Assembly: GCA_000004985.1 (NCBI GenBank)
Contig: GG738866.1
DNA from: Naegleria gruberi
Lineage: Eukaryota
Reading direction: 5' to 3' (one strand)
Length of the DNA: 64,000 nt
Shown here piece after piece: positions 3,119-43,559 of the stretch. Position numbers and translations under genes: made by a program. The first letter of the stretch is position 1, and every line of letters starts with the position of its first letter. A model generated the notes under the pieces. It was not told where the DNA came from and did not search any database. It saw only the letters and a program-made list of their open reading frames with translations.

Positions 3119-4043
3119 ATGAAACAAGATCAATGCACTGTTGCTCCTTCACCATCATCCTTGTGTGAAAGTGGTGGATTGTTTCCTGCAGAAATTTGGG
3201 TCCACATTCTTTCCTATCTACCTTCACCGTATATTCCGAATAGTGAGAATAATTCCGATCAAGAATTCAGAAAACAAGTTTTGGAATGGAATCAACTGAG
3301 AGAGAAATCATCCTCTATTTATTATGCTTGTAAATTTGCTATAATGGAGATGGATTTATCTTCATGGTTTCGTATGGATTTGAAAGAAATTGAGACGGCT
3401 TCCAAGTCAATTATACTACCTGGAGTAAAGAGAATAACTTATGAGGAAAATTTTCAAAAGAGATTTTCCAAAGAGAAAGGAGTTAATCCAATTTAATGCA
3501 ACTCAAATGGGTAAGATAATGATGAGACAGGAAAGTGCGTTTCAAATTATCTTGAATGGATTGGCTAATGGTTTTGCAAATGTGAAAAAGTTAAATCTCG
3601 ATGGATGGTACTTTTTGAAAGAGGAAGAATTGCAGAAAATTTGTGAAAATTTGAAATGTTTGGAGAGTTTATCCATTGTCAAATGTCAGAGAATTAGGGA
3701 TTTGGAATTGAGTAAGATTTCTAATCTGAATAATTTGAGAATTCACATCAATCAAATCAAATTAAGAATTAATATTGAAAGGAAAACAAGACAACAAAAT
3801 TTCAACATTGATATAGTTGATGGATTTTCCTTATTTTTCAAAACTTTGGATGGTTTTGGATTTTCAGAGCAATATCATTATTTATACTTTATTAAGGATA
3901 TGAAACCCTTATTGGAAAAGAGAATGGGAGTTTCATGGGAGAAGATTCGGTTCATCTTTGCTGGAAAGGAAATTGAGAATGAAAGAAGATTTGCTGATTA
4001 CTGTGTCTGCAAGGATAGTACCGTGCACGTTATTAAAAGGTAG
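3119..4043 (+). CDS. F-box-like / leucine-rich-repeat protein with C-terminal ubiquitin-like domain; putative 49-nt intron 3482..3530
   Basis: N-terminus AEIWVHILSYLPSP is F-box-like. The middle has LRR-type L..L.L...-L units. The C-terminus KIRFIFAGKEIENERRFADYCVCKDSTVHVIKR aligns to the second half of ubiquitin ([31 protein letters not shown]). Two ORFs in frames 2 and 0 overlap at 3441..3496. The only in-frame GT..AG join is GTTAAT...GACAG at 3482..3530 (length = 1 mod 3). Confidence 0.5.
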
Positions 4044-4148
4044 ATGAATTGTACATATCAAGCCCTATTTAATTTTGAATAAACCTGACTAATCTTTCAT
4101 AAGCGAAATTCGTTTCGAACAATCACAAAGTTAAAGTTTACAAAAAAA

Positions 4149-6099
4149 ATGAACTCCCATATCACCACTCTCATTCTCGTCGATTTCAAAATTGACACGA
4201 TCAACAACCAACTGCACAACTTGTTGAGGAATAAATTTTCCAATCAACAAAAAGGAAGACTTGTCTATTTAGAAAACAGAGAAAAATCATACAATTTTAT
4301 TCCGATAGAATTTACCAGAGATTTGGCATTTGTTTTGAAAATATTGGAAAGATTGAACGAGTATAATTCGTGTTGTACATTTGAAGAGTTGCTCAATCAT
4401 ATTCCGAATGGAATTTTACAAAATCCCAAAAGTTATTGCAAAATTATGTCAAATTTACATTGAAAAGTTTGGTTGTTTGGGAAATCAGTGGAATAATTTC
4501 ACACAATTATTTGCAAATAATAGAGAAATGGTCCTTGAAATTCTCAAATTGAATCCAAGTGCACTTCGATTTGTGTCGGCTGAATTTCAGAATGATTATG
4601 AGATTGTAATGACTGCTGTGAAAGTGAATGGATTTTCATTGAAATATGCTTCAGATATATTGAAGGGAAATAGACAAGTTGTAACTCAAGCTGTGATGAC
4701 TGATGGATTTGCACTTGATTTTGCATCTAGTGAATTGATGAATGATATAGATTTACAGAAAATGGCTATTCGAAACAATCCTAATATGTTTTCATGTCTT
4801 GTGAACAAGCTAACCATTTTTGAAATTGAAAATGAAGTTCTTGAACTTGCTCTTCATTTACATGGAAAATCCCTAGCTCTAATTCCAAACACTTTTCACA
4901 ATTACAGAGATCTTGTTTTACTAGCTGTCAAGAATGATGGTAAAGCTCTTTCACATGCCACAGAAACTTTGAAAGCAGATAGAGAAATTGTATGGGAAGC
5001 TGTATCTCAGAATGGCTTTGCATTATTCTATGCCTCTCCTGAACTCAAGAAGGATAGAGAAATTATTCTAAAAGCTCTAGAAACTTCGAGCACTTGCTAC
5101 CTCTCCTTGCCGATTGATTTTCAAGAAGATTTGGAAATTATTCAGCAAACTCTTCGGTATTTCCCCAATGCTCTTCAATTTATTCGTTCCACAAATTTGG
5201 ATATCCAATTCCTCACTTCTGTGGTAGAGAAAAATCCTCTCCTACTTAAGTATGCGTCTAGAGTGCGTAAGGATAAGAATTTAGTATTGAAATCAGTTGA
5301 ATTGGATGGCAATAATCTTCAGTATGCTGATTCGGAATTGAGACAAGATCCTGAATTGATCTTGAAAGCAGCTCAGCAAAATATTAAATCACTCGTATTT
5401 GCCAAAAATATGGGAAAGGAGCTCTTAATAGAGTTATCTGAAATGAATGGATTTTTACTTGATTATGTATGGAATCAACTTGGAGAATTAAAGACAGACA
5501 GAGATTTTATAATAGCCTGTCTCAAAAGAAATGGAAGGAACTTTATAGTTCTCGATCAATCAATGAGGGATGATAGAGAAATACTCAATATTGCATTAGA
5601 AACTTTTGGAACAGCCCTATACTATTCTGATAAGAGGTTTAGATATGAGTATGAGATGGTAAAGAAGGCGGTTCGAGATAGTCCCGATATTCATACCTCC
5701 ATTCCACGAGTTGTTATTGACAGAGAAATTGTCAAAACGATTCTTTCTGTAAAGGGGATTTTGTTTCATGAATTTTACAGGTTTAATAATGATATTGAGC
5801 TTGTCATGACAGCCGTCAAACAAAATGGGAAGAGTTTTAAATATGCCAGTGAAAATATAGTAAGGGATCCAGAGGTGCAGACGCTAGTTGTAAAAGAAAG
5901 TGGGTTTTGCTTTCAACCAAATGCAGAACTATTTCAATCACGAATGGAACATTGTTACTTTGGTGCTTATCAATATGAACATTTACCATTCTATCCATTC
6001 AATAATTATCCAATGGAATATTTCTACAGTTACAACACATACAATTCAGAAGTTAGATTACCAGATTACAGTGAACTTTTAAAACCTTTACAAAAATAA
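4149..6099 (+). CDS. large DUF4116-like repeat protein (~16 repeat units), probably one short intron near 4372-4432
   Basis: At least 15 tandem units of the type FQNDYEIVMTAVKVNGFSLKYASDILKGNRQVV. ORFs 4149..4463 and 4381..6099 overlap in different frames. GT..AG spans 4372..4432 (61 nt) or 4375..4432 (58 nt) join them in frame. Confidence 0.55.
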
Positions 6100-6130
6100 G
6101 TTTCTGATAAATGTATAGTTCAATATCTTT

Positions 6131-7751
6131 TCACTTTGATTGGTTTGTGATTTGATTCAAGTAATTATTGATAAAATTAATTTTACGCTTAATGGGACTT
6201 GTTTCCTTATATGAAGCACATTGTTTCATGACAGTTTGTGTTAACTGTTGTAAATTAGAGTTTTTCAAATAGAGTTGAAAGTTTTTCAGTCCAAGAACCT
6301 TTCTAATATTATTCATTCGCGATTCGAATTGTTCCACCTCTACATGTTGATAAACTAGACGAAAGCATTGAATTGTATCGTCATATTTGATAACCTTACT
6401 CCATATCTTGTCAAAAATACTTCCATTCTTACACATTTCCGTGAATGAGTCTTTATAATTCTTTCTTTGGAGTATAGATTCGAATGTATTGAAATGTATA
6501 GCCGTTTGAACAATTGAATCTTGAAAAAGCTCATTTTCCATCTCCAACCCGATTGCCTTAGTATTCATTGTCAACAAATGATCATAGATCTTGATAAATG
6601 ATTTGATGTCTTTCGAAAGAGAGTTCAATAATTTTACAATGGATAAAACTTCAATTATTGTAAAACTTCTCTCTGAAAAATTACTGTAAATTGAAATGAT
6701 TTCCAACATTTCCTTCAAACAATTTGGATCATTTTCAAAATAGTTATAAAAATAGTAAAATGCAGATATCATTTCTTTCACAGCCAAAAGAATTAGCTCT
6801 GCATCTTCATTTTCCAATAATAATTCCGAAAGCTCTCTAAGTTTTTTAAAATCCTTCTTTGCAAACAATGCTTGCACAACACAAAATTTGAAATCGCCAT
6901 CTCTTCCATATGGATTCTCAAATAAAAACTTTAAGATTGAAGAGGAAACATTTCTTCTTTCTTTCAAATTTGGTACAACACATGACGAAACTAAGCAATC
7001 AAATAAATCGTCGTCCATGTCTGTAACAAGTTCAATATAAGCTGCTAAATATTTCAAATTTAGCCAACCATCTGTTGATGAGATATCGATTCGTTTTCTA
7101 TTGAAAATTATTCGAATCAAATCCAACATGTTTTCATCCTTGAATGGATTTAACTTTTTTGTTTTGTGAATTGGAAATTTCAGTTGAATAATCAGTTTTC
7201 AATCTTTGAAGCCATTTTAGAATGTGGCTGAAATGACTAAAGTCTTGTGTTACTCCATGGATTCTATCCAGTCTCATTCGAAATGTTTCTAATTTCCGAT
7301 GGTTTGTGTAATTTGGATCTACTAAGAGATTTAAATAATTGCATGACATTGAACTATCCGAAAATTCACAAGTGCTAATGAACAGAGAGGCACTATTCAT
7401 CATGGAAATAAAATTCGAAACCTTTAGTTTACCCATCCTTCCATCATTTGCCAACTCTTTTCCTTTCTTTTCTCTATATATCAAATAACATGCTCCTGCA
7501 ATTCTACTCCATAATTCAAGGATTGGAACATATAATTCACTATCACCCACTAAAATATCATAAAACATTCGTTTTGAAATTAGAATATAATTTTGTAATT
7601 CTTCAAATGCTGAAAGAAATACAAGTTTTGATGATTTGTTGGTGAGTAGCTCTATGGGAATGATAAATTTCAAGATTTGTAATCTCATTTCAGATGGCAA
7701 GTCCAGTAAAGTTTGTTGATCTGAAAAATCTTCCATTTCAATTATCGACAT
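6131..7751 (-). CDS. F-box-like protein, interrupted: two ORFs (7751..7134 and 7129..6131) separated by TGA plus 4 nt
   Basis: N-terminal LLDLPSEMRLQILKFIIPIELL is F-box-like. The downstream ORF frame is already open through the upstream ORF's C-terminus. A +1 shift at the A6 run (AACAAAAAAGTT, plus 7153-7164) gives a continuous ...NSQNKKLNPFKDENMLDLIR... product. The alternative is a 100-nt GTAACA..AG intron. Confidence 0.45.
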
Positions 7752-8228
7752 TTTTTTGAAATATGAAAATCAACTTCAAAATTGAGAAATCAAAAATTCT
7801 TCTCAAGATGCATCATGATTTTTGATCAGGAAATTCCTTCAAAACTTAATAGCAAACACCTCATTCTTTCAATACCATTTCCAACCCATCACTCTCTTAA
7901 TGCTATTCTGAAAATATTACACCTCCTCTCCATTCAGAACACTTTACAATAAATATTTTCCAAGTGTTCATCATGTTCTTTTTTTCATTTGTGAGATGGA
8001 ACTTCACAAGTGAAGCTTCTGCTAATGGTGATGAACAAGTTTTCTCTCTCGCGATCAAAGTTAAAAATACACTCGCCGTGCTGAACATGCTTGCAAAAAT
8101 AATCAAGAAAAAATTGGTCGACGAGAACAAGCTATTTCCTCACAGTTTGAAGAAGCATACTTTAAAATCGTCATCATCATTAATTGTTGTACATTGTATT
8201 ATTATTTATTTGTTATATTACTTTGAAG

Positions 8229-9857
8229 ATGTCCTATATTCTCTCACCAATTTCACCATCACCTGTCGAATTTCCTGATGAATCAAAGTGGAAGGAAAGA
8301 CAAGATCGTCAATTGCGTTTGTGGGGAGTTCACGGTCAAGCTAGAATTGATTCTGCTCAAGTTTGTCTTTTGAATGCCACTGCTGTTGGTTGCGAAGTTT
8401 TGAAGAATATTGTTCTTCCAGGTTTTGGAAGCTTTTCTGTTGTTGATGCTCAAAAGGTCACTCCAAGAGATTTGGGAAGAAACTTTTACTTGAGAAAATC
8501 GGATTTGGAAAGAAATAGAGCTGAAGCTGTCTCTGAAATTATTGCAGAATTGAATCCAGAAGTTAAAGGTCAATTCCTTGCTGAAGATCCACTTGTTGTC
8601 ATTGAAAAATCACCAGAATTCTTTGATCAATTCAATTATATCATTGCTTCACAAATGCCTATGCATCACGTTGAAAAATTGGCCAAATATTGTCATGAAA
8701 AGAACAAGATCCTTGTTGCTGTTCGTTCATATGGTATGATCGGCTATTTACGTATCTTTACAAAGAGCCACACTATTGTTGAAGCTAAATTAGATACTCA
8801 AATTGATGATTTACGTATCACAAAACCATGGTTGGACTTTTTAAAGTTCTGTGATCTCCAAGAATTGGATGCTATGGATAATAATGCCCTCGCTCACACT
8901 GCCTACCCAATCTTGTTGGTCAAGGCTTTACAACAATGGAAATCATCTCACAATAACCAATTACCACAATCAAGAGCTGACAAGGAAGAATTCCAAAATA
9001 CTATCAAGGGTCTTTCCAAGTCATGGACCATGTTGACAAACTTTGAAGAAGCTTTAGATAAGGCTCACTTTTGTTATTCTGAACCACAAATTCCAGACTC
9101 TGTTAGTGCTGTTTTCAATGATGAACTTTGCACAAATTTGACAAAGGAATCTGATGATTTCTGGGTTATGGCTGCCTCTGTTAAAAAGTTTGTTGAAAAT
9201 GAAGGACAAGGTTTATTACCACTTCAAGGACGTGTTCCAGATATGCAATCTGATACTGAACGTTATGTTAAAATGCAATCACTTTTCAGAAAGAAGGCTC
9301 GTGCTGATATGGAAATTGTTAAAAAGTACATGAAGGAATTTTTGACACAAGTTGGTAGACCAGAAGATTCCATTCCAGAAATGGATCTTAAGGAATTCTG
9401 TAAAAATGCTTACTACTTGCGTGCAATTCATTTCAGATCTTTGGAACAAGAACTAAAGTCACCAAACAAGGAAGAAATTCAATCACACATGCAATGGAAT
9501 GAAGATTCAACCATGCCATTCTATGTCTGTTTCCGTGCCATTGATAGATTCTTGGAAAAGAAGGGATACTACCCAGGTCAAGAAGATGAAAATGTTGAAG
9601 CTGACACTGTTGAATTGAGAAAGATTGTTGATGAATTGCTTGTTGAATTTGGTGTTTCCGAATCTTGTCATGATATGGATAAGTATGTTGGTGAAATGGT
9701 CAGATATGGTGGTTGTGAACTCCATAATATTTCATCATTGATGGGAGGTGTTGCTGGTCAAGAATTGATCAAGTTGTGTACCAGACAACGTATTCCTGTT
9801 AATAATACTTGGGTCTTCTCTGGTATCAAGTCAATTTCGATTGCTTTTGAAGCATAA
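8229..9857 (+). CDS. NAE1: NEDD8-activating enzyme E1 regulatory subunit (APP-BP1 / ULA1)
   Basis: DRQLRLWGVHGQ...VCLLNATAVGCEVLKNIVLPGFGSFSVVD...LGRNFYL...NRAEA is collinear with NAE1 N-terminal ThiF-like fold. The C-terminal region FLGGVAGQELIKL is also conserved. No introns are needed. Confidence 0.85.
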   Translation: MSYILSPISPSPVEFPDESKWKERQDRQLRLWGVHGQARIDSAQVCLLNATAVGCEVLKNIVLPGFGSFSVVDAQKVTPRDLGRNFYLRKSDLERNRAEAVSEIIAELNPEVKGQFLAEDPLVVIEKSPEFFDQFNYIIASQMPMHHVEKLAKYCHEKNKILVAVRSYGMIGYLRIFTKSHTIVEAKLDTQIDDLRITKPWLDFLKFCDLQELDAMDNNALAHTAYPILLVKALQQWKSSHNNQLPQSRADKEEFQNTIKGLSKSWTMLTNFEEALDKAHFCYSEPQIPDSVSAVFNDELCTNLTKESDDFWVMAASVKKFVENEGQGLLPLQGRVPDMQSDTERYVKMQSLFRKKARADMEIVKKYMKEFLTQVGRPEDSIPEMDLKEFCKNAYYLRAIHFRSLEQELKSPNKEEIQSHMQWNEDSTMPFYVCFRAIDRFLEKKGYYPGQEDENVEADTVELRKIVDELLVEFGVSESCHDMDKYVGEMVRYGGCELHNISSLMGGVAGQELIKLCTRQRIPVNNTWVFSGIKSISIAFEA

Positions 9858-10930: not shown

Positions 10931-12058
10931 ATGTTTCATTCCATCTTCTCATATTTGTGGTGGATTTTCCCAACCCGATCCGAAAATCTTTATGCATCTT
11001 TATTGAAGAATAGCATTGATGAGAATGACTTCAAAGCAGGAATATTGGAAAGTCTCTCATTGGATATTGTGATCGAGATTATATCCTTTCTCGATCGGTT
11101 TGAATTTATCAGATTGTTTTCAGGAGTGAATAAATCCTTCTATTCATTAACAGAGGATAAAAGATTCTGGTTAATATTAGACCGTCATGATGAGAAAATT
11201 CCTACTGTTACACAACCAAATTCAAACTTCCAACCAATACTATGTTTTTCAAGAATTGAAGAATATCTCAAATCTTCTGAAAAGACAAGTTTCAAAACCA
11301 TTTACAAGAACCTTCTCCTCTCCCCTACCCCACACGAATTGAATCCAGTCTTTAAAAATCGTTCTGCAATTTATAATGTTGACACAGATCTCATTCCTGA
11401 AACAAAGAAATATATTGCCCTCTTTGGACAATCAAATTCTGGAAAATATTCTCTGGGAATTTGCTCTACGAGAGGTTATTCAAGGCCTAGTGATCAGAAG
11501 AGTGTTATCAAGATGGATTTCTTCTTCAAAAGAGTACTGATCAAGATGGAAAATCTATCCTCTCATCATAATGGAAATATTAGTGGAATATGCCATACGA
11601 ATTTTGTAATTGAATGTTTTGGACATCCTGATTTTCATTTGAAATTTAGAAATAATGGAATGGTTAGCATGAATAGTTTATCACTGGGTAGTAGTCTTTC
11701 AATCATGTTTACAATTGATTTATCAGTGAAAAATAATTATTTTCTCTCTGATTTATCCAAAATTTTGAATCCTTTATTTCAAGTTGATATTTCCAAAGAT
11801 TCTCCTCAGAAAATTAGAAAGAAAATGGGTAATAATAGACTCTGTATAATTGGAACCAAGAGTGATATTAGACAATTGAGTGAACAATCTCTGGCAAGTC
11901 AACTGATGAAAGTTATTGACACAAGTTGTGAATTTTGGGATCAATCCATCATTTACATTGAAACAAGTTCCAAAAATCGTGAAAATATGGATCATCCCTA
12001 TCTATTCTTTTCTCAATCCAACATTCATTCCCAAATCCAACCAAACTCATCCCTGTAA
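10931..12058 (+). CDS. F-box-like protein fused to a degenerate Ras-superfamily GTPase-like domain
   Basis: F-box-like LDIVIEIISFLDRFEFIRLF...FW. Downstream are G1-like ALFGQSNSGKYSL, G3-region ECFGHPDF, G4-like IIGTKSD (NKxD with N to T) and G5-like ETSSKN. The order and spacing match a small GTPase. Confidence 0.45.
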   Translation: MFHSIFSYLWWIFPTRSENLYASLLKNSIDENDFKAGILESLSLDIVIEIISFLDRFEFIRLFSGVNKSFYSLTEDKRFWLILDRHDEKIPTVTQPNSNFQPILCFSRIEEYLKSSEKTSFKTIYKNLLLSPTPHELNPVFKNRSAIYNVDTDLIPETKKYIALFGQSNSGKYSLGICSTRGYSRPSDQKSVIKMDFFFKRVLIKMENLSSHHNGNISGICHTNFVIECFGHPDFHLKFRNNGMVSMNSLSLGSSLSIMFTIDLSVKNNYFLSDLSKILNPLFQVDISKDSPQKIRKKMGNNRLCIIGTKSDIRQLSEQSLASQLMKVIDTSCEFWDQSIIYIETSSKNRENMDHPYLFFSQSNIHSQIQPNSSL

Positions 12059-14213: not shown

Positions 14214-14242
14214 TCTCATTAAATTTAACTTATTTTTCCAAT

Positions 14243-15764: not shown

Positions 15765-16795
15765 ATGTCAAAACTTGAAAAACTTTCCTTTCAATTTTTT
15801 GATAAATTACCAGAAGAAATTTTGAGTGAAATTGGGAATTTTCTATTGCTTGGTGAATTTCACAAGTGGATGTTGGTGAATCGAATAGTATATCAGAAAC
15901 TTTGTTCCGATGCTTGTTATTCGAAATTTTATTGGAGGGAAATTAAGTATCATTGCAATGCAGATGAGAAGAAATATGTAATTTACAATCCAGTAACTTT
16001 AGAATATCACTCTAATGTGCATTCACTTTATTCTATTTATGGAAAAGTTTCGTCTAATTTTCGATATCATCTCTTGCAGTTTAAAAAGGAAATTTCGAAT
16101 AACAAACCCAACTTTTCATTCACTCCCATTGAGAACATGATGGAAATCAATCCAAAACTCCAAAAATCATTAGAAAAAGATGAATTTCCAGGATATGGAA
16201 AGATTTGCCTTATTGGAAACTCAACATGTGGCAAAACTTCACTTTATTGGAGAGTTCATACTCGAGAATTTCAAGAAACTTTTTGGTATACTTCAGATAA
16301 TCCCAATTTAGTGTATGAAAATTTTCTGATGTCATTGTGGGACCTTCCCTGTAGAGATGGGTAAGTTTCGTTTTATTTAGAATATTTTGAGATTAATCTC
16401 AATCAAGATATGATCAATTGAGAACTTTGTCGTATCCAGAAGCACACTTGGCTCTCGCTTGCTTTTCACTTGTGGACAGAGATTCATTCGATTCTATTCG
16501 AAACAAGTGGATTCATGAATTGAGATTCCACTTGAAAGATACTCCAATTATTCTGGTTGGTTGTAAACATGATTTAAGAGAAGAAATCATCAAATCATCA
16601 ACACATCAAGATAACCAATCAATTGTAACAAGTGAGGAAGCAGAGGAATTCGCCAAAAGTTTCGGATTTATATCCTATTGGGAGAATTCCTCTAAAAGTG
16701 GATTTGGGATGAAGAATTTTATGGAAATTTTAGTAAATGGGTGCACCTATCAACCGAATATTGTAAAACCAAAGAAAAAGTGTTTAATTCAATAA
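15765..16795 (+). CDS. F-box-like protein fused to a Rho-family pseudo-GTPase ending in a CaaX box; intron 16361..16407
   Basis: N-terminus LPEEILSEIGNFLLLGEF...YW is F-box-like. After removing the 47-nt GTAAGT..CAAG intron the protein reads ICLIGNSTCGKTSL...WDLPCRDGYDQLRTLSYPEAHLALACFSLVDRDSFDSIRNKW...PIILVGCKHDL...ENSSKSG...KKCLIQ*. This is collinear with RhoA (LVIVGDGACGKTCL...WDTAGQEDYDRLRPLSYP...CFS...VGNKKDL...CSAK...CLVL). Switch II DTAGQE is replaced by DLPCRD and NKxD by CKHD. Confidence 0.7.
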
Positions 16796-16880: not shown

Positions 16881-17732
16881 ATGTCACCACACAATGATTA
16901 CACTACCATTCCAATAGAAGAATCAGAGATTAATTTACATTACTCACAAACTAATTCTTCCGAAACATTAAATTCATCATTATTAAATCTCCCGCCAGAA
17001 TTATTAACATTAATTATTGAATATTTATCAAATGATAATGTTGCACTGCTGTCATTCGAATTACTCGGAATAACTGCACGAGAAGTAATGAATAATCAAG
17101 TGTGGGAAAAATTATTTAGAAATCAACAAATTTCGTCCAAGTTTTTGGGTTTCGACTGGTTTATTTTACCGAATCAGTATCTTGTTGAACTGGTCAAGAG
17201 AAAATCAGAAAATCCACACAAAATTGCATTTTATTATCATTTCTACATGAATGGAATTATTACACAATTTCTAGATTATGAAATTTCGGATATAATTTAC
17301 AATTTCAGATATTCGAATAGAAGTAACGTATTTCAAATTGAAAAATCATTAATCCCATTAAGGAAATATTTTGAAGAAATGAATAGGTTTCATTTCTATT
17401 CAAATAGAAGACCAATTAATATTTTACTTTACAAAACTCAATTAGAAATTGAAATGAAACGTTGGATTAATTTCAAGAAGAAACCAGGCGAAATACTTCA
17501 CCAATACCGTCGCCACACCTATACCTCTTGCTTTATCCTCCTAGTAGTAAGCCCAATTATTGGAATTGGCTCTTTAGGAATGATTTTGGTTGGTGGAATT
17601 AGTTTCAAATATCCAACGTTTAATTCAGAACTTGGCGCCATCTCACTCATCATTATTGGATGTTTCATTTTGTTGATATCAGTTGTGGGATTACTTGTTT
17701 CAACCAAGTACATTTGTTCTTACAGAGATTAA
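16881..17732 (+). CDS. F-box-like protein with C-terminal transmembrane anchor (two hydrophobic helices)
   Basis: LNLPPELLTLIIEYLSNDNVALLSF...VWEKLF is F-box-like. The C-terminus has FILLVVSPIIGIGSLGMILVGGISF and ISLIIIGCFILLISVVGLLV hydrophobic segments. Confidence 0.5.
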   Translation: MSPHNDYTTIPIEESEINLHYSQTNSSETLNSSLLNLPPELLTLIIEYLSNDNVALLSFELLGITAREVMNNQVWEKLFRNQQISSKFLGFDWFILPNQYLVELVKRKSENPHKIAFYYHFYMNGIITQFLDYEISDIIYNFRYSNRSNVFQIEKSLIPLRKYFEEMNRFHFYSNRRPINILLYKTQLEIEMKRWINFKKKPGEILHQYRRHTYTSCFILLVVSPIIGIGSLGMILVGGISFKYPTFNSELGAISLIIIGCFILLISVVGLLVSTKYICSYRD

Positions 17733-17747
17733 CTTCCATGAATTGGA

Positions 17748-19167: not shown

Positions 19168-19475
19168 GTCATGATGTGTTTCAGTATTGCGTGATGCTAA
19201 CTTGTTTTGGAAGTGTTGAGATTGGAAATTTTGGCATTTTTAATTTGCATCTCAAGCAATGGGCATTTTGTGCTGTTATTGGCAGTGGATGAGGGTTTTC
19301 TTTTTGGGAGTTTGGTAATTATTACCATTCCTTTATTCATTAAAACAGTCTGCTGCATTAATCAGTACGCAGACGGTGTAAAAACCACCATGATCGAGGT
19401 CAATCTTGACTCTGAAGGCTCTCTTTACTGAAAATGAGATATTTCATTAAGTTAAAATTTTCTTAATGAATATAA
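19168..19475 (+). repeat. conserved tRNA-Glu upstream module, copy 1 (carries a ~130-nt insertion relative to copy 2)
   Basis: ATGATGTGTTTCAGTATTGCGTGATGCTAAC...TTTTGTGCTGTTATTGG...GAGGGTT...TTTTTGG aligns to 25201..25385. The proximal 40 nt (ATGAATATAATCCCGTG) are also shared with copy 3. Confidence 0.6.
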
Positions 19476-19547
19476 TCCCGTGTAGTCCAATGGCTAGGAT
19501 ACCTGGCTTTCACCCAGGAGGTCCGGGTTCAATTCCCGGCATGGGAG
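19476..19547 (+). tRNA. tRNA-Glu (anticodon UUC)
   Basis: 72-nt cloverleaf TCCCGTGTAGTCCAATGGCTAGGATACCTGGCTTTCACCCAGGAGGTCCGGGTTCAATTCCCGGCATGGGAG. Anticodon loop is CTTTCAC. A T-run terminator follows (ATTTTG). Confidence 0.9.
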
Positions 19548-19641
19548 GATATTTTGCATTGAATTTTTAATTGTTGTTAAAGTTCAATACTTTATTTAAT
19601 TCTCATGTTATTTTACAGGTAATTAGAGAAAAATTTGTCAA

Positions 19642-20640
19642 CTATTTTACAAGTGGTTTGACGATTGGTTTTGTTGGCTTCTTACATGTCTTTCTCTTGA
19701 TACAAATCTTCTTCTTGATTGACTTGCAGCACTTCTTCTTTCCACCAACTAATTTGAATTTCTTACAAATCTTCTTTCCCTTTGAACGTTTCAAACACTT
19801 CTTATAATACTTCTTCTTGATACATCTTGGAGGAATGACAATTGACTTGGCACAATACTTCTTCTTGTTATATTTGACACATTTGGAGAGAGTCTTCTTG
19901 TGTTTACAGAATTTGATGGTCTTATGCTTGGCGCAGAAGAATTTCTTCTTAATGAGACAACACTTCTTGAAAGATTTTCTTTCCTTGCAGTATTTAACCT
20001 TCTTATACTTGGCACATTTCTTTGCCCAGGAGACAATCTTGCACTTTTTAACATATCTACATTTGGCAACCTTCTTATTGTAAGAATCAACAGTGTACTT
20101 GTCGCAGACCTTCTTCTTTTCACACTTCTTGATTGGAACCTTCTTGAATTTCTTACAGACCTTCTTGAAACCCTTCTTGAAGCACTTATTGATAATCTTG
20201 TGCTTGGCACAGAACTTCTTGAAACCCTTCTTGATGCAAATCTTCTTAGTTCCATAAGAATCACAAACTTTCCAATACTTCTTCTTGGCACATCCAACAA
20301 TCTTGTATGCATGCAAGACACACTTCTTTGTTGGCTTACTGTACTTGTCACATTTGGAATATTTCTTATGTTTAAGACATTTACCAGCACCGACAATTGC
20401 ATATTGATCACAGACCTTCTTTTGACCAACGAGTTTGTGTTTCAAACACTTCTTAATCCACTTGTGCTTTAAACATTTTCTCTTACAAATTCTTGGCTTG
20501 TGATACTTGTCAACTACTGGAGGATTGGTTTGATAGCTGTCACTTGCTTGAACTGAAAGGATTGCAAGCAAGAGTAGAATTGCAATTGAAAAGATTAGAT
20601 TTGCTTTCATTTTTTGTTTTTGTTGGATTGGATAGTTCAA
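19642..20640 (-). CDS. secreted Lys/Cys-rich repeat protein, no recognisable homolog
   Basis: Signal-peptide-like MKANLIFSIAILLLLAILSVQA. The mature part is about 35% Lys and 15% Cys, with KKCxKHK / CAKHK units recurring roughly every 8-10 residues. The ORFs on other strands and frames here are by-products of the nucleotide repetitiveness. Confidence 0.5.
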   Translation of the reverse strand: MNYPIQQKQKMKANLIFSIAILLLLAILSVQASDSYQTNPPVVDKYHKPRICKRKCLKHKWIKKCLKHKLVGQKKVCDQYAIVGAGKCLKHKKYSKCDKYSKPTKKCVLHAYKIVGCAKKKYWKVCDSYGTKKICIKKGFKKFCAKHKIINKCFKKGFKKVCKKFKKVPIKKCEKKKVCDKYTVDSYNKKVAKCRYVKKCKIVSWAKKCAKYKKVKYCKERKSFKKCCLIKKKFFCAKHKTIKFCKHKKTLSKCVKYNKKKYCAKSIVIPPRCIKKKYYKKCLKRSKGKKICKKFKLVGGKKKCCKSIKKKICIKRKTCKKPTKPIVKPLVK

Positions 20641-22605: not shown

Positions 22606-23817
22606 TCACTGGAATAGTTTTTTAAATACATCTATTAATTTTGAAAGCATATGAAGTGAATAATCGAGTAGATCATCGTGCACCTGCTCAATCTTTCTGT
22701 AATTGAAATTTTTTAGATGGGAGAATGAATGTTGAGAAATTGAGCAATGAAATCTACGAATATCATCTGCAGAGCTCAATTCAAATTGTAATTCTCTCAA
22801 ATTCTTGAAAACTTGCTTGCCTATCAGAATTTTAACATGATTCAATCTTAGTAGAACATTTCCAAACCTTAATACTTTTAACTGCTCTAAATTGTCCAAT
22901 TGATTGAGGAAAAGTTCAATAGATGTATAATTATTAGATACATTATATAAATTTTCAAGAGTAATTTCCTTCAATTTGGAAAATTTTGAATTACAAATAG
23001 TTTCCAATATTTGTAAATTAATATGATATGATAACTTCAATATTTCAATATTAGAACACAATTCAGACATTAGAGTATTTACAATTGATAAATCGCTATA
23101 AATATTGGCCAGTGATAATTTTTTAAGGTTTCCAAAATTGGAAAATGTATCTGAATTATTCCATTCATGAATAATACATGAATTCAAAGATAAACTTTCA
23201 ATATTTTTGAAACATTCTTTCTCTGATAATGATGATGAACTAAGCATAAAACTTCCAAGTTCCAGACGTTTTAAACTTGCTAAATAAGGACTATCAAACA
23301 TTTCAATATCGAAATAATGCTCTCCATAAACTTCATCTGAAATTATCAAAGTTTCAAGATTTTTCATTCGACTTCCAACAATCAATTCAATTCCGCACAT
23401 TGGATTTCTCCAATATTGATCATATGGATCGTGTGTTCTTAATTCCAAATAGTTCAATTCGAAAGTTTCAACAATCATTTTCAACAGTTTCGTATGAGTT
23501 GAATATCCAATGATTGTAACTCCTCTCACATTTCTACAATTCTCTCCTTTCAATTTTTCAATCCACTTATCGACAATTCTTTCGTCAACATCTTGTACTT
23601 CGCTATCGAACCAAACATACGAATCTTCCACATTAATCGTTAAAAACAGTGGAATTTTCAAAGAATGTGAGTACCAATTCTTATTCACACGATTACAATT
23701 TTTCAAAATTTGCTCTCCGCTCATGTAATTTAATATTAAATTTAATATTAAATCATCAAAAATTGCATCACCGGATTCAGGTGAACATTTCATGATGTAT
23801 GTTTTCATTTTTTCCAT
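22606..23817 (-). CDS. F-box-like / leucine-rich-repeat protein
   Basis: N-terminal FDDLILNLILNYMSGEQILKNCNRVNKNWY is F-box-like. The C-terminal half has LRRs (LKRLELGSF, IESLSLNSC, LKKLSLANI, IEILKLSYHINL, LKEITLENL). Confidence 0.6.
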   Translation of the reverse strand: MEKMKTYIMKCSPESGDAIFDDLILNLILNYMSGEQILKNCNRVNKNWYSHSLKIPLFLTINVEDSYVWFDSEVQDVDERIVDKWIEKLKGENCRNVRGVTIIGYSTHTKLLKMIVETFELNYLELRTHDPYDQYWRNPMCGIELIVGSRMKNLETLIISDEVYGEHYFDIEMFDSPYLASLKRLELGSFMLSSSSLSEKECFKNIESLSLNSCIIHEWNNSDTFSNFGNLKKLSLANIYSDLSIVNTLMSELCSNIEILKLSYHINLQILETICNSKFSKLKEITLENLYNVSNNYTSIELFLNQLDNLEQLKVLRFGNVLLRLNHVKILIGKQVFKNLRELQFELSSADDIRRFHCSISQHSFSHLKNFNYRKIEQVHDDLLDYSLHMLSKLIDVFKKLFQ

Positions 23818-23881: not shown

Positions 23882-25039
23882 TTAATCACTGAAACATACA
23901 CTAGCGTGATATTCATAGAATTGATAAAGAACTACTTCGAAGGGATTTTCCATATTGTTGGGATTGACAATTAAGGAAATAATATAGCTATCAATGGCAT
24001 CACCTAAAAGTTGTGAATTGAAGGATCGTTCAACTTTCATAAATGTTGTGTAACTTGTAATGTTTGGATCTTCATTCCATTTCGCCTTTGTATTTTCATT
24101 AAATTCGTCCAAAATTTCCAAAGTGTTCAAGTTATAAGGACAACATTCAGCAATGTTATCGTAAAATGTAATTCGATGAAGATCATGCACATAGTAATTG
24201 ATTCGAAATAGAAAGTTCAACATCATTTGAAGAAGGTATTGATTGTGTAAAATTCCACATTCATGACATGTCAAAACTAGTTCTCTAATCCAATGAATGA
24301 AATTTTTAGCACCTTTCATTTGGTTTCCATTGGAAGGGGCAACTTCAAATTGATTATACGAAAGGCAAATTACATTTCTCACTAAATTGTGTTCGTATGA
24401 AGTGTCATCATTGGGGATGCCAACGAGCTCTGTACAATTCTCATTATGGTAGAAACCCTCTTCCAACTTTTGAATGAGAATATATTCAGAACGATTCTTT
24501 TTGTTTCTTCCTGTAAACAGTTGGTCAGCTGAGGAAAATTTTAATCCCAAATGATTACTATATCCTTCGTCATCACATTCCTGATGCCAAACCATTGAAT
24601 AATCTGCAAAATAATTTAAATTACCTATCTCTACATCCTTAGAATTATTCCTCTTGGTCACATTAATGCAATCACAAAGTATCCACTTGCTCATTTGAAA
24701 AATCTTATCATTTTCTATATTGAATGAAGGTTTACATTTGTAAAACTTGAATTCATAACGAGGAATCATCATTCCTTCATTAATAGCTGCAACACATTTA
24801 GAAAGAAACACAATAAATGGCATTGCACGTTGGTAATCAATCAAATGATGATCAATCTTCAAGTTTTCTGAGTGAGAATTATTCAAACTCTTGTTTAAAT
24901 GTTGAAAGTACAAATAAAAGTGTTTTGTAATTAAATCTCTCCATTCTGTGCACACGAATTTGCAATTTAAAATTTGTTTCCATGATAAATAGCCATCAAA
25001 TAGAATGGTCAGCAGAATGTCCTGATTGTTGGCTATCAT
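23882..25039 (-). CDS. F-box-like domain protein with unknown C-terminal domain
   Basis: DILLTILFDGYLSWKQILNCKFVCTEWRDLI at the N-terminus. The remaining ~330 aa is Cys/His/aromatic-rich with no match I can name. Confidence 0.45.
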   Translation of the reverse strand: MIANNQDILLTILFDGYLSWKQILNCKFVCTEWRDLITKHFYLYFQHLNKSLNNSHSENLKIDHHLIDYQRAMPFIVFLSKCVAAINEGMMIPRYEFKFYKCKPSFNIENDKIFQMSKWILCDCINVTKRNNSKDVEIGNLNYFADYSMVWHQECDDEGYSNHLGLKFSSADQLFTGRNKKNRSEYILIQKLEEGFYHNENCTELVGIPNDDTSYEHNLVRNVICLSYNQFEVAPSNGNQMKGAKNFIHWIRELVLTCHECGILHNQYLLQMMLNFLFRINYYVHDLHRITFYDNIAECCPYNLNTLEILDEFNENTKAKWNEDPNITSYTTFMKVERSFNSQLLGDAIDSYIISLIVNPNNMENPFEVVLYQFYEYHASVCFSD

Positions 25040-25200: not shown

Positions 25201-25385
25201 GTAATGATGTGTTTCAGTATTATGTGATGCTAACACTTGTTTGGAAATTTTGGCAATTTTGATTTGTGTCTTGTTTTGTGCTGTTATTGGTTATTGGTGA
25301 GGGTTGACTTTTTGGAATTTTGGATTTTACAATCTCGTTCTGAATCATAAATTTCATGAGGGTCAAAGTTTCATAATGAATGTAA
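25201..25385 (+). repeat. conserved tRNA-Glu upstream module, copy 2
   Basis: AATGATGTGTTTCAGTATTATGTGATGCTAACACTTGTTTGGAAATTTTGGCAATTTTGATTTG...TTTTGTGCTGTTATTGGTTATTGGTGAGGGTTGACTTTTTGGAATTTTGG. About 80% identical to 19168..19330 with indels. Confidence 0.6.
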
Positions 25386-25457
25386 TCCCGTGTAGTCCAA
25401 TGGCTAGGATACCTGGCTTTCACCCAGGAGGTCCGGGTTCAATTCCCGGCATGGGAG
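25386..25457 (+). tRNA. tRNA-Glu (anticodon UUC)
   Basis: Identical 72-nt sequence to 19476..19547. Followed by AATTTTTG. Confidence 0.9.
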
Positions 25458-25899
25458 GATAATTTTTGTTGCAAAGTTATTTGTGATTGTTTATTGGGGT
25501 ATTATTGGGTACTTTTTTATGATTTCCTCTTCACTACAATTCTCAAATATGTTTGCTTGCAAGAAAATGTATTGCCTTAATTCCAATAATTTTCGAATTT
25601 TTGAAGAGAATTTACAATTTCTTCTTCATGAATGATATACGATTCGGTATTGGATAGCCTATCACGTTTTGGCACAATATTGTGCTGTTTCTGCTTCTAT
25701 AAAATTATTACGCACCAAAAGTTTTGAAATTTAGATTGTAAAGTCTAATTCTACATTTACTAAAAAAACTCCATATTAGCATCATACTACTATTAGTTAA
25801 TACCATCTCCAAAATAGGACCTCATCAAAAAATACTAATTCAAAACAATAACAATCATTCTTAAAATAAACTTTAAAAAATACATCAACTTCTCACATA

Positions 25900-28403: not shown

Positions 28404-30603
28404 ATGAAAGTATGCCAAGCAGAAGATGGAACTCTGCTGTTGGATACAAAACAATTCTTACCAACTACACCAACAACAACAATAACTGATAATGTCGGAG
28501 ACAATGTACCAAACATTTATACAATCTTTCAACTCAAACAAGTTTTGGAAAAATCAACGAACATTTCTATTGAGAATCAAATATTATTGGATTCAAAAGG
28601 AGCAAAAGTAGACAATGAACAAACTATTGCAGACTTTGATGATGATGAGAATTTGTATCTTTTTGATAGAATGTCCTTTTCATCAAAATCAAAGGCTCAA
28701 GTGTTATTAAAAATTATTTCCGATGAATTTGGACAGTTAGAGTTACGAGAAATCAATCCTACAAATATTATTCTACCAGAGGAAATTCAGAAAAAGATTA
28801 AGAACAATGAACTATTCAAATATGTTCAACAATTTTACATTCAATTATTACAGGCTGAGGTAGGTTGTGATTGATGATTTTAATTATTTATTCTTGTTCT
28901 ATAGAACATTGCCAAGACTACTCAGAATAGGATGAATTATTGTGTTGTGAAATTGGACCAAATGAAAATTCAGAACGAGTCGATAAGTGTTGCCCTCCTC
29001 AATCTTGAAGGACATACGAAAGGTAGTTCAGCCTCATTAAAAAGATTTAAGGAAAGGTAAGAGTTTCATTATTACTTTATGCTTATTATTTAATATTAGA
29101 TTCGATAAGATTGATACCAAATATATGGATATTATACTAACTCTCGATTCAGATATGGAAAAGGTAAGTTTAAAGTGAATTATCAGTTAATAACGATCAA
29201 TCAAACAGTTAAGTTCAATCGAACTGCATCCAACCATTCAAACATCATCAAGGCGTACACTTCAAGATTGCATTCCAATACAGCAAATCAAATTGTGGGC
29301 CACCAGATGTTCACAAGATTTGTCTACCTTTAAAGAAAAGGTAATTCAGACCATTGCTTTATCCCAACAAATTGATAGGGATGTTGACACTCAACTGTTA
29401 CTCATTGTCCCACCAGTCAAGTAAGTATAATTTGTCAATCAATTTCAATTTACAATTTTAAATAGTTTTTCAATGTTATCCAAACTTTGTACTGAATCGG
29501 AAAACATTGTAAATAATCAAAAAGAACTTGTAAATAATATTAACCGTAACTTCCAATCCCTTCTACAAATGGCATCCAAATCCGAGAGTCATAAGGATGT
29601 AACAGTTATTGTCCAACTCATTGAAACACATCAACATGATCTTATTCAATTGAGAGATTTTGAAAATGGCATGAAAGTGACGTGTGAGAAGATTGCCCAG
29701 TCCAAAGTCATGCTAACTAAATACTTACTCGAAAAGTTAAAGGTTATTTCTACCATTCAGTATAGTATTCTCAAATTGAATAAGAAAGTACAAACCTTTG
29801 TAAGCGTATTGAAGAATATCATGTCCAAATTCCACCACGTCTCAATTCCAAAATACCTTCCTGGAGCCTATTTTATGGCACTTTTGGAAATTATTAGACG
29901 AAGGGCCTACATTAGAAAATTCGATGCTGAAGTTATCAGAGCATCAGAAATCATTCAAGAACTCAGGGATGAAGAGACAAGAAATAGAAAGAACTTTTTC
30001 AAAGCATTTGGAAAATTCTTGCCACCTCAACTCATTGACAAGATTAATGAATTGCCTGGAAGTGGAGATGAAATTTTGAACCTCATTGGCTCTTATTCAC
30101 AAACTGAAATGAACAAACTTCCAAACATTTCCAGTCTCGATGGAATGGAAAATATTGTAAAAATGGAAGAAATTGAAAAGACTTTTAACGATGCAGTCTA
30201 CTTTGGAGATTCTGGATCGAGCAAGTTGGAATTTAAATTATACTCCAAGTTGTTGGATGAAAATAATCTATTCCACCAAATGAACGAGAAGAATATGATT
30301 TCCTCCTCAATCAATTTTGATTTCGATAGAGTTAGTATTGCAGATAGTGATACAGAGATTCATGGATCCTCTGCTAGTAGTTCACCAAGATCCTACACAA
30401 AAGCAAAAACAGCCAATATTGAGGAATACGAAAGGAGAATGGAGGATTTAGATATCATGGAGAATCAATTGAAATCCATATCAGTCAGAGCAACCCCTAG
30501 TACACCTTCTGATATTGACCAATTGAGAGAAGAAAATTTTATGCTCAAACAACAAGTATTGCAATTGCAGAGAGAACTCGAACAATTAAAGCAAAATAAA
30601 TAA
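28404..30603 (+). CDS. FIP200/Atg11/Atg17-like coiled-coil scaffold with N-terminal ubiquitin-like fold; 5 exons (28404..28859, 28905..29056, 29100..29163, 29209..29420, 29466..30603)
   Basis: N-terminal MKVCQAEDGTLLLD...IFQLKQVLEKSTNISIENQILLDSKGAKVD...NLYLFDR resembles the FIP200/RB1CC1 UBL. Introns are 28860..28904 (45 nt), 29057..29099 (43 nt), 29164..29208 (45 nt) and 29421..29465 (45 nt), with GTAGGT/GTAAGA/GTAAGT donors, and all keep the frame. The C-terminal part is coiled-coil-rich. Confidence 0.45.
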
Positions 30604-35932: not shown

Positions 35933-36024
35933 ATAAATAAGTTAGTGTAGATTTTATATACATCATCTAAAGTTACAAGAATGTCACAGATATTGATCTA
36001 TTTCAAAAATAATTGTTGGTCAAC

Positions 36025-41044: not shown

Positions 41045-41166
41045 CTTTCTATTTTTTTAATATTTTGTTAATATTTTCTCAGAATATTTTGTAATGGTTA
41101 CCAAACTCCGAATTCCCCTCCTTTCAAGAAATAATTCAATTAAAAAACAAATATTTAAAAAAACAA

Positions 41167-43559
41167 ATGGCAAGAACAAGACAAACGGCGAGAGCCTTCC
41201 ACAACAGCAGACCAGAAGAACCCTGCTTTACCAATGATGTTCAACAAACAGAATTATTCAGCAAATTGTTGAGAGAAAATTGTCAAGCTTTACGTTCGGA
41301 TGATGATAAATCTTTGCACTCGAGACTTGCCCAATACAAGAATTGTACCAAACTTGCCCAATTGTGGATGTTGGAAGATATGATGAAGAGTGAGAATGAT
41401 CATGATCAATCAATCAATGATGTAGAATATTTGAAACAATTACCGGAAGAATTAAAGATTGAAATTGTTTCTTTTATTCCAACATACAGCAGATATCCTT
41501 CCGTGTCTACCATTCTCGAATGTTACAGCGTTGGTGGAGGAGAACTTGCCTCTGTTCCAGAGGTTGAATATTTGGATGTTTGGTTCATGACCTTTATGAA
41601 ATATAGATTGGTGTCAAAATCCTTTAAAGTTGCTATGGAAAACTTGTTATTCAAACCTTGTCTAACAATGGACTTGATATTACTGGTTTTGTTATGAAAT
41701 GTTTCCTCTCAATTGATAGGAGAATTTGGTTTGTTTACTCATTGTTGGAATCTCACAATAGATTTATTCAAGGTGAATGGGATGGCAAGTTCAACTTGGT
41801 TGAATATCCTTTTTCACATCCTCAAAATGATTACGATTATGCAACACAATTTGGTGGCTCATTTACTTTTGGAAATAATGAGAATAATTCAACTAAATTT
41901 GAATCAACTAATAATAATCTTGATTTGAGCTCTATTGATTTTAATTCAATCAAATCCATTGAGGAAGAATTAATTACAAAGAATGAATTCTCTCTCGAAA
42001 CACCATTTGATATTACTTGTCAGTCTAAGGAGAAACAAGTTGTTGATCTAGTAGCGAAACAGAGTGTGAGAATTGCACAAGTCTACAATCAATTCAGCCA
42101 TACAAATATGTCTGCAAGAAGCGACTTTTCCAATAATTGCATCAATGGTTCTATTAAAACCCTTGCAATTTCACTCTCAAGTACTACATTTGTGAGTGGA
42201 ATACTTGATCTACTTCCTAACATTGAGCATCTTACCATTATTCTTTATGACAGTTTGGAGCTATACCATAGTTTGGCCAATTTAAGATTGACGAGCAGAA
42301 CTAATTTACAATCAGTGAACGTAATAGCACTAAAAAATCTTATATGGAGCGATTTTGCAGGATTTTTTCCTCCTAAGATTACTACTTTTTACACTTTCCT
42401 ACAAGATGGGCCATTAAATCAGTATCATGGTTTAGAGATGTATCTCGACGGTAAGCTAATGCAAAACGAATTTACCCAACAAATTGCAACTGATCCCTCT
42501 TTGATTACACCGAAACTCTTTTTCAAATCATGTGACTTTAAATTTTTCAAAGAAATAGCTCACAAGTACACGCTCTTCCCATTTATATCAGGAATTAGCT
42601 TTTTCTTTAGGGTTAGCAAATTTACTTCTTTGGAAGAACAAAAATCCTTTACAAACTTTATTGCCAAAAACTATCCACTGGAGGGTAAGTATCATTTTCA
42701 TTTCGATTAACACGTAGAAGATTTTGCATTATTTTTTGCAGGAATGCAAAGAAGTAATGACATGAAAGATCTCAGTTGGAAACAATACTTGATATACCTT
42801 TCAAATAGTTATCACAATGGTAGAGTAATGACTGACTCATCAAATGTACCTCATTTACTATACTATGGATTGGATTTAACAAACAATATACTCAAACTAA
42901 GTTTTCCAAATGGTAATCTTGCAGCTTTATTATTGGCTCATTTGAAATTTTTGAAAGAAAAGAATTTGTATCAGATAGATGTGTTTCCATTGAAGCAATG
43001 TTTTATTCGTCATCATAAAACAAAACCGTGGATGGAGCAAGCTTTGAAATTATTGTTCTTTGCCTGTGAAAATTTAACAGAGGTTGAAAAATTAGACTTC
43101 TTTGGAGACTTTAAGTGTTCTCATTATAGTTTCAGTATTGTTCATATAATAATAATAGGATTTCAAGTGGATGACTACATTTTCCAATCTTTAATTAAGC
43201 ATATTCCAACTCAATCCCTTCTTGTAAAGACTTCAAATATTTCTGTTAGCAATACCTTCTTTCATACCCTACATATTGCCATGAAAAACCCACAGTTAAG
43301 TAATGACACCATTTTAAAATTAATAGAAAAAGAGCCAGCATTGGTATTACAAGTGGATAATGAAAATCTCACACCCCTTCATTATGCCTGTAGTGGTAGT
43401 AGTAATAGATGGCCTCTTATTCCACACTTAGAGAAGATTGCTGGTCCAAATTGTTGGTTTGCATTAGATTCAAATCAAAATTCACCTCTTGATTATGTAA
43501 AACTTGTTACGGGATCTTTCAGTCATCTCTTTCCATACGGACCTAGCCAACTGTTATAG
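41167..43559 (+). CDS. F-box-like protein with C-terminal ankyrin repeats and a histone-H3-like N-terminal octapeptide; at least 3 exons (intron 42685..42741 verified; junction near 41650-41775 unresolved)
   Basis: N-terminus MARTRQTAR...; F-box-like LKQLPEELKIEIVSFIP. The 57-nt intron GTAAGT...TTTTTTGCAG joins ...KNYPLEG to MQRSNDMKDLSW in frame. C-terminal TPLHYACSGSS / NSPLDYV are ankyrin-type. Confidence 0.5.

Follow-up and report, generated by a model that had tools for sequence, protein, structure and literature searches.

Eight genes within a 41-kb stretch of Naegleria gruberi NEG-M nuclear DNA raise the question of whether they encode F-box proteins and whether their proximity reflects a local expansion of such proteins. 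The window analysed here is the whole 64,000-nucleotide (nt) stretch of contig GG738866.1 in which they lie, and the genes are named by the coordinate of their open reading frame (ORF) as g3119, g7751, g10931, g15765, g16881, g22606, g23882, and g41167. A preliminary description of the window had proposed that each of the eight begins with an F-box-like motif. All eight ORFs are present and start or end where they had been placed, and by eye each of them opens with an F-box-like stretch of the pattern LPxEIxxxILxYL ... VxKxW. With a probability of roughly 0.7, we consider them eight separate genes, each predicted to join an F-box or F-box-like N-terminus to a differing C-terminal module and to encode a substrate receptor of SCF (Skp1-Cul1-Rbx1) ligases.

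The motif was scored with a hidden Markov model (HMM) built from outside sequences because circularity had to be avoided. This outside HMM comprised 11 Naegleria GTPase N-termini flagged as F-box in Herman et al. 2021 and the Skp2 F-box, and none of the eight candidates was included. Among the 72 window ORFs of at least 100 amino acids (aa), the candidates occupied ranks 1 to 8, with scores from 22.4 to 7.4 bits, and the ninth ORF scored 3.9. Residue-shuffled controls (100 shuffles of all 72 ORFs) resulted in a mean of 0.14 ORFs per replicate at 7 bits or more and in none at 10. The eight N-termini were also pooled into one profile, with three loop insertions cut out by hand, and this profile was searched against PDB. 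As a result, almost only F-box proteins were retrieved; the best match was Skp2 (E 1.9e-7), and further matches were KDM2A, FBXW8, FBXO42, FBXL17, FBXL5, FBXL2, beta-TrCP, TIR1, and Cdc4. Three Pfam clan models were used, PF00646 (F-box, gathering cut-off 20.5 bits), PF12937 (F-box-like, 24.3 bits), and PF13013 (F-box-like_2). At E <= 1, six of the eight candidates had a match among the clan models, with PF00646 and PF12937 each matching four, and no F-box family had two or more matches at this level among 59 other window ORFs taken as a control. The F-box-type similarity of the eight N-termini exceeds chance, and neither the outside HMM nor the profile scans found additional F-box-like ORFs within the window.

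Several results weigh against extending the F-box assignment to all eight genes. Only g10931 passes a Pfam gathering cut-off; the other seven stay below, and g7751, g15765, and g22606 have no Pfam F-box match in their native sequence. The alignment of g3119 and g7751 is restricted to helix 1, and a subgroup profile of the insertion-bearing g3119, g7751, and g41167 retrieved no F-box protein from PDB. The AlphaFold models of g22606 (single sequence; predicted local distance difference test, pLDDT, 39) and of the g7751 N-terminus (eight-sequence alignment; pLDDT 58) are of low confidence, and Foldseek gave no fold match for them. Leave-one-out HMMs among the eight barely recognised the omitted member, the motifs being highly divergent. 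The full three-helix span is alignable in g10931, g15765, g22606, and g23882, and by these sequence comparisons the four are well supported as F-box genes. The assignment is probable for g41167 and g16881 and possible only for g3119 and g7751, in which helix 1 alone is recognisable. An F-box-like start in all eight is borne out by the outside HMM and the pooled profile, but it is weak for the last two. The profile-HMM search that had been suggested as a check came out divided, negative for seven candidates at the curated Pfam thresholds and positive for all eight in the outside ranking.

The clearest case is g10931 (10931..12058, plus strand), with a canonical F-box at nt 11045-11173 followed by what appears to be a degenerate Rab-like GTPase remnant. 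Its product is an exact match of XP_002677508.1 (UniProt D2VEA6), which carries the UniRef name 'F-box domain-containing protein', and it scored 23.5 bits against Pfam F-box (cut-off 20.5) and 15.4 bits against Pfam Ras. The remnant, at about nt 11810-12001, retains a G4 motif (TKSD) and a G5 motif (ETSSK), and a P-loop-like GQSNSGKY lies at 11400-11470. For the C-terminal half, the best PDB match was Rab43 (E 0.1), with the alignment covering G4-G5. This C-terminus had earlier been listed as unknown. The gene is absent from the accessible part of Table S8 of Herman et al., and a link to the published F-box-Rab clades was rejected, the similarity not being significant. We also compared the window with a second strain, represented by N. 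gruberi-like contigs of the ENA metagenome assembly ERZ929261 that are 98-98.6% identical to it; in this strain, the F-box-bearing N-terminus of g10931 has one residue changed.

The second GTPase fusion, g15765 (15765..16795, plus strand), has a predicted F-box at nt 15795-15929 and a Rac-like GTPase that starts at about nt 16200 and terminates with the CaaX box CLIQ. It corresponds to XP_002677510.1 in its corrected model, and excising a 47-nt intron at 16361-16407 with a GTAAGT donor reproduces the published protein exactly. Its outside HMM score was 21.7-22.4 bits, and exon 2 scored 60.5 bits against Pfam Ras. Across its full length, the protein is 43% identical (E 1e-80) to XP_002676320.1, which is flagged as F-box in Table S8, and on this homology the F-box assignment of g15765 is well supported. 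In the same table, g15765 itself is placed in the Rac group without an F-box flag, within a set of F-box-Rac-like paralogs for which no orthologs are flagged outside Heterolobosea. An F-box followed by a Ras-superfamily GTPase in a Naegleria-specific paralog group is thus found in g15765. The DxxGQ motif is degenerate and reads DLPCR within WDLPCRDG (window 16340-16370). Catalytic motifs are degenerate in both fusions, and from their sequences g15765 and g10931 may be pseudo-GTPase scaffolds.

The other two well-supported genes lie next to each other on the minus strand. In g22606 (22606..23817), a candidate F-box without the LP dipeptide at nt 23650-23760 precedes a leucine-rich repeat (LRR)-like body; the motif aligned to outside F-boxes with hhalign at P 1.6e-4 over 27 columns and scored 11.8 bits with the outside HMM. 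Its LRR is weakly supported (Pfam LRR_At5g56370, 17 bits). In g23882 (23882..25039), the F-box at nt 24902-25027 scored 21.5 bits against Pfam F-box-like (E 2e-4; cut-off 24.3) and is joined to a Naegleria-specific C-terminal domain. When all 1.84 billion representatives were scanned with HMMER, the g23882 family proved to have three clusters only, all from Naegleria: its own truncated model XP_002677594.1, the N. gruberi paralog XP_002673080.1, and N. lovaniensis XP_044553921.1, the last of which is named F-box domain-containing by UniRef. The RefSeq model XP_002677594.1 begins at Met73 and leaves the F-box out. XP_002673080.1 is shortened in the same way, and the ENA ORF P0012 restores its F-box-like N-terminus. 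A subgroup profile of g22606, g23882, and two relatives of g23882 had 16 PDB matches, all 16 of them F-box proteins, and it is on this profile that the assignment of both genes is well supported.

Of the two probable genes, g41167 (41167..43559, plus strand) consists of three ORF pieces with a split F-box-like motif, an LRR-like middle, and two ankyrin repeats. Helix 1 lies at nt 41428-41484 and helices 2/3 at nt 41593-41643, separated by an insertion of about 36 aa. The native sequence scored 16.2 bits against Pfam F-box (E 0.01) and, with the insertion cut out, 17.5 bits over profile positions 2-40; the outside HMM gave 16.4-18.6 bits, with the helix 1 and helix 2/3 pieces co-linear. The ankyrin repeats are at nt 43215-43448, and exon 3 matched ankyrin proteins in PDB (E 6.6e-4 for the top match). 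The g16881 gene (16881..17732, plus strand) has an F-box-like motif at nt 16971-17129, which scored 15.3 bits with F-box-like_2, 13.4 with F-box, and 10.7 with F-box-like, each under its cut-off, and 7.4-9.7 bits with the outside HMM; what matches is mainly helix 1. A single-sequence PDB search with g16881 gave no match. Two hydrophobic helices (Kyte-Doolittle) follow at aa 214-241 and 247-280 (nt 17520-17720). The exact ORF is missing from the protein collection, and the gene is apparently unannotated, as the RefSeq numbering leaves no slot for it.

In g3119 (3119..4043, plus strand), the helix-1 motif LFPAEIWVHILSYLPSP lies at nt 3179-3229 and is followed by an insertion of about 25 aa. It scored 12.7 bits against Pfam F-box-like over profile positions 5-18 only and aligned to the outside F-boxes at P 4.7e-5 over 20 columns (hhalign). 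The gene continues with an LRR at about nt 3552-3758 (LRR_EndoS, 22.4 bits) and has a ubiquitin-like domain at its C-terminus (nt 3834-4037), which passes the Pfam ubiquitin cut-off with 32.6 bits. In g7751 (6131..7751, minus strand), nt 7551-7709 encode helix 1 LLDLPSEMRLQILKFI, an insertion of about 18 aa, and then ELQNYILISKRMFYDIL. When the insertion was cut out, Pfam F-box-like matched with 15.5 bits over profile positions 2-31. The outside HMM score was 10.2 bits, and the hhalign match (P 0.0023) covers helix 1 only. The C-terminal part of 332 aa is helical and matched no known domain in Pfam.

For g3119 and g7751, and possibly for g41167 and g16881, a different explanation would be that they are not F-box genes and that an unrelated N-terminal amphipathic helix, which does not bind Skp1, happens to fit LPxEIxxxILxYL. 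This is what the restriction of the matches to helix 1 would lead one to expect; neither the subgroup profile nor single-sequence PDB searches retrieve an F-box protein, and the g7751 N-terminal model, at its low confidence, is not F-box-like by Foldseek. However, none of 7,200 shuffled ORFs reached 10 bits with the outside HMM. In g41167, helix 1 and helix 2/3 are co-linear, and Pfam F-box spans positions 2-40 once the insertion is removed. The order of helix 1, insertion, and '...NFQSxxK' also recurs, by inspection, in Ras-like GTPases of N. gruberi in Table S8, at least 10 in number, and one of these, XP_002668120.1, is without the insertion and can be read as an uninterrupted F-box. We consider the unrelated helix unlikely for these genes, but a genuine minority possibility.

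These Ras-like GTPases of Table S8 share LPxEI..ILSF, an insertion of 15-30 residues, and ..NFQS(L/I)xK, and they carry no F-box flag there. A direct link between the insertion-bearing motifs of the window and the split N-termini of these GTPases was considered and rejected, since the similarity is confined to helix 1. A broader and speculative proposal, which we regard as doubtful, is that the Naegleria F-box repertoire is much larger and more varied than annotated, that reference models frequently omit the 5' end encoding the F-box, that a class with an enlarged helix 1-2 loop escapes the databases, and that the window is a hot spot in which an F-box 5' module was repeatedly fused to unrelated C-termini. 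Judged by sequence, members of the enlarged-loop class may be g3119, g7751, g41167, and the unflagged Ras-like GTPases just described. If this proposal were true, Naegleria would have SCF receptors controlled by the state of a GTPase, tethered to membranes, or linked to the proteasome.

The diversity of C-terminal modules that had been described for the eight genes stood up well, with a ubiquitin-like domain, a Ras-type GTPase, ankyrin matches in PDB, and two hydrophobic helices; the LRR of g22606 is the weak element. In characterised F-box proteins, the F-box docks on Skp1 of the SCF, and the rest of the protein recruits substrates. By analogy, SCF substrate-receptor function is the most likely role of the eight products. 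The N-terminal F-box would dock on Skp1, and the C-terminal module would pick the substrate or position the ligase, recruiting substrates to Cul1-Rbx1. The LRR of g22606 and the ankyrin repeats of g41167 could bind substrate, and the ubiquitin-like tail of g3119 could couple the ligase to the proteasome. A CaaX lipid in g15765 or the transmembrane helices of g16881 could anchor the ligase at a membrane. The GTPase-like domains of g15765 and g10931 might make binding, or the turnover of the receptor itself, dependent on nucleotide state, or serve as pseudo-GTPase scaffolds. Skp1 binding, ligase function, and every role given here to a C-terminal module are what we infer from characterised F-box proteins. 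For most of the eight genes, we find the F-box substrate-adaptor reading reasonable.

Several of the eight ORFs are interrupted, and the preliminary description had taken frame breaks as a sign of gene turnover. The sequence belongs to a eukaryotic genome: five ORF products are letter-for-letter identical to N. gruberi NEG-M proteins, all from the same 469-kb scaffold, and the window, with a guanine-cytosine (GC) content of 30-37%, also encodes RPS10, a NEDD8-activating enzyme regulatory subunit, an actin-like protein, a DEAD-box helicase, PA200, and CHMP5. A bacterial or viral origin was rejected on these grounds, and with such clearly eukaryotic protein content, the plain ORF list must be read allowing for introns. 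Introns of other window genes are 47-85 nt long and have GTAAGT, GTATGT, or GTTTGT donors. Breaks occur at five junctions in four of the eight genes (g3119, g7751, g15765, and g41167), and two of the five are canonical introns, namely the intron of g15765 described above and a 57-nt intron of g41167 at 42685-42741 (GTAAGT...GCAG). The other three have no donor of the three types. In g3119, the break falls between 3425 and 3530, and the donors are weak (GTAAAG at 3425 or GTATGG at 3372). In g41167, the first break lies at about 41646-41719, with GTTATT as a donor option. The break of g7751, at about 7136-7200, stands beside an A4/A6 run with both frames open and no good donor; by its sequence, an intron explains it less well than a 1-nt frameshift or an assembly error would. 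Spliced or alternative-start models guessed for g3119, g7751, g16881, g22606, and g41167 were all missing from the protein collection, and a further search for second-strain contigs spanning the unexplained junctions of g3119, g7751, and g41167 found none.

In the second strain, a GAGAGA run of g22606 has lost 2 bp (window 23541-23542; ENA contig L001, 98.6% identical), and this deletion shifts the frame and ends the ORF after about 89 aa; it is a disrupted allele. Together with the g7751 break, this deletion counts against eight working receptors, and some copies may be non-functional. In its strongest form, this argument would make the region a graveyard of decaying F-box pseudogenes. Such a view could draw on the breaks without good introns in g7751, at the first junction of g41167, and possibly in g3119, on the g22606 frameshift, on the degenerate catalytic motifs of both GTPase fusions, and on the disrupted copies reported in F-box-bearing Rab-like clades by Herman et al. 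(PMC8296547). Nevertheless, ORFs of 283-403 codons are intact at 33% GC, and canonical introns account for two of the breaks. In a pool of four of the eight genes, the strains differ by 11 synonymous (Sd) and 9 nonsynonymous (Nd) changes, a ratio of nonsynonymous to synonymous differences per site (pN/pS) of about 0.2 from small counts. Within this pool, the N-terminal 105 aa of g7751 have one residue changed (Sd 3, Nd 1), and exon 3 of g41167 has Sd 6 and Nd 3 with no indels. This indicates that the genes are under constraint between the strains, against general decay, and we judge a graveyard improbable. The reading of frame breaks as turnover is thus largely unsupported at this locus; it loses the two introns and sits poorly with the constraint, but retains the g22606 frameshift.

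A word-indexed homology search was unreliable in its negatives: g22606 and a 2,576-aa concatenation of the candidates had no matches, and P0001, which is identical to part of the query, and P0008, 97% identical to the g22606 N-terminus, were missed although both are in the collection. We therefore do not take any of the genes to be an orphan on this search. The short motif alignment had one match in the same search.

Turning to the clustering of the eight genes, their abundance had been likened to the F-box expansions of plants and nematodes. All-against-all BLASTP of the eight gave no pair under E 0.3, and the leave-one-out profiles are weak, so that neighbouring genes are not recognisable paralogs. 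As the eight are not paralogs of each other, the analogy with tandem plant and nematode arrays fails. Paralogs of single genes lie elsewhere in the genome: the g15765 family appears in the published table, and the g23882 paralog is on another scaffold. On these sequence relationships, the expansion is genome-wide and dispersed rather than a tandem array. Traces of old local duplication are at most faint; the F-box core of g22606 has its closest window relative in the adjacent g23882 and is also near the paralog of g23882, and the cores of g7751 and g41167 are near-reciprocal best matches. Lineage specificity, the other part of that earlier claim, holds for the two families for which it was shown, since the three g23882 clusters and the g15765 paralog set are Naegleria-restricted.

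Between 3.1 and 43.6 kb, the motif is carried by about eight of 24 genes, and by none of the window's remaining genes, about 18 in all. Could this density be chance, with F-box genes so many that eight unrelated ones in 41 kb mean nothing and that scanning a genome would be bound to turn up a window of this kind? By a binomial estimate corrected for about 640 windows, the clustering is significant as long as no more than about 3% of genes are F-box genes (corrected probability at most about 0.01), and significance is lost once their share passes about 3-5%. The significance of the clustering therefore depends on the genome-wide F-box frequency, a dependence that weighs against our preferred explanation. 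That frequency may be high. The accessible part of Table S8 flags at least 29 N. gruberi GTPases as F-box, and many more there look F-box-like but are unflagged. The two RefSeq models checked for the g23882 family, XP_002677594.1 and XP_002673080.1, both lack their F-box N-termini, and reference-proteome F-box counts are therefore too low. Moreover, no similarity is detectable among the eight outside the short motif. Chance is opposed by the contrast between the two parts of the window, by the low corrected probability at a share of up to 3%, and by the adjacent g22606 and g23882, whose F-box cores are each other's nearest window relatives. On balance, chance clustering is a serious competitor that we place somewhat short of even odds.

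The eight genes are most likely part of a genome-wide, Naegleria-specific F-box proliferation, which is documented for GTPase fusions. According to Herman et al. (2021, BMC Biol 19:142, PMC8296547, Additional files 4 and 10), the F-box is the commonest extra domain of the Naegleria Ras-superfamily GTPases (Rab, Rho, Ran, as well as G-alpha), and the F-box-bearing Rab-like clades show lineage-specific expansion with birth-and-death. Among the papers searched, none dealt with Naegleria non-GTPase F-box genes or gave a genome-wide F-box count. If the eight are real SCF receptors, the F-box wiring of Naegleria would reach beyond GTPases; the added partners would be a ubiquitin-like tail, an anchor in the membrane, and a domain specific to the lineage. 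F-boxes are under-represented in the reference proteome, as seen in the truncated XP_002677594.1, the apparently unannotated g16881, and the unflagged g15765. Such gaps matter when ubiquitin-system genes are counted and compared across protists, and when the mimicry of amoebal hosts by Legionella F-box effectors is studied. Nothing here alters how SCF ligases as such are understood, and we regard the finding as modest.

Other features of the window were recorded alongside the eight genes. Proteostasis genes lie among or beside them, namely the NEDD8-activating enzyme regulatory subunit (8184-9857, plus strand), PA200/Blm10 (45144-50732, minus strand), and an ATG17/ATG11-like gene (28404-30603, plus strand). 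The NEDD8-activating enzyme is needed for cullin activation; the proximity of these genes to the F-box genes may be coincidence. Just downstream of g22606, at 22269-22561 (plus orientation), are two actin-like gene fragments, one 90% identical across 103 nt and the other 80% identical across 218 nt that include the 3' end (compared with 43724-44374). The source of these similar fragments is the actin-like gene at 43732-44877, and by their sequence they resemble part of a duplicated pseudogene. An insertion of g22606-g23882 into an actin-like pseudogene was rejected, being at odds with the order in which the flanking fragments lie. An intergenic repeat of about 120 bp and about 90% identity is found at 19433-19555, 25343-25466, and, inverted, 44937-45056. 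Two of its copies lie 60-300 nt upstream of minus-strand gene starts, those of g23882 and the actin-like gene; the repeat may serve as a shared regulatory element, or it may be a small mobile element.

Two genes with DUF4116 repeats are located at 1628-2803 (minus strand, five repeats) and 4149-6099 (plus strand, 12 repeats); in the second, the ORF is broken at 4381-4463, where a canonical GTAAGT or GTATGT donor is lacking. A 332-aa ORF at 19642-20640 (minus strand) combines a signal-peptide-like start with an extremely Lys/Cys-rich repetitive body (CxKHK and KKC motifs). Further long ORFs overlap it, both on the opposite strand and in other reading frames, as is typical of low-complexity coding sequence.

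Compared with known systems, the window genes resemble the plant (FBA/FBD/kelch) and nematode (FTH/DUF38) arrays in being many lineage-specific F-box genes, some of them perhaps disrupted. They differ in that the members of those arrays are recognisable paralogs with the same C-terminal domain, whereas the window genes share the motif only. The FBXL-type receptors (Skp2, FBXL2, FBXL5, and FBXL17) are matched by the order of F-box and then LRRs in g22606, in g3119, and in the middle of g41167, and in PDB the pooled motif profile matched Skp2 best. However, the LRR parts have no detectable sequence homology to theirs, and no orthology is established. FBXL2 is targeted to membranes via a CaaX lipid, and g15765 is predicted to be targeted likewise. 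Similarly to g3119, FBXO7 combines an F-box and a ubiquitin-like domain in one polypeptide. The ubiquitin-like domain of FBXO7 is N-terminal, whereas that of g3119 is C-terminal, behind the LRRs, and of the g3119 F-box only helix 1 is recognisable.

A fusion of an F-box with a Ras-superfamily GTPase is also found in another member of Discoba, in TbFRP of trypanosomes (FYVE-F-box-GTPase, PMC3593210), which differs in its N-terminal FYVE domain. No TbFRP ortholog is reported for N. gruberi (PMC3593210), and the F-box-GTPase fusions therefore appear independent. A further comparison is with the F-box-GTPase fusions of Naegleria itself (PMC8296547). There, g15765 is listed as XP_002677510.1* in the Rac group, with a corrected gene model. 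The layout of these fusions is shared by g10931, in which a divergent Rab-like domain stands behind the N-terminal F-box. The other six of the eight window genes have non-GTPase C-termini, which the accessible part of Herman et al. does not cover. F-box proliferation is thus already published for the GTPase fusions of Naegleria, and what the window adds is further members.

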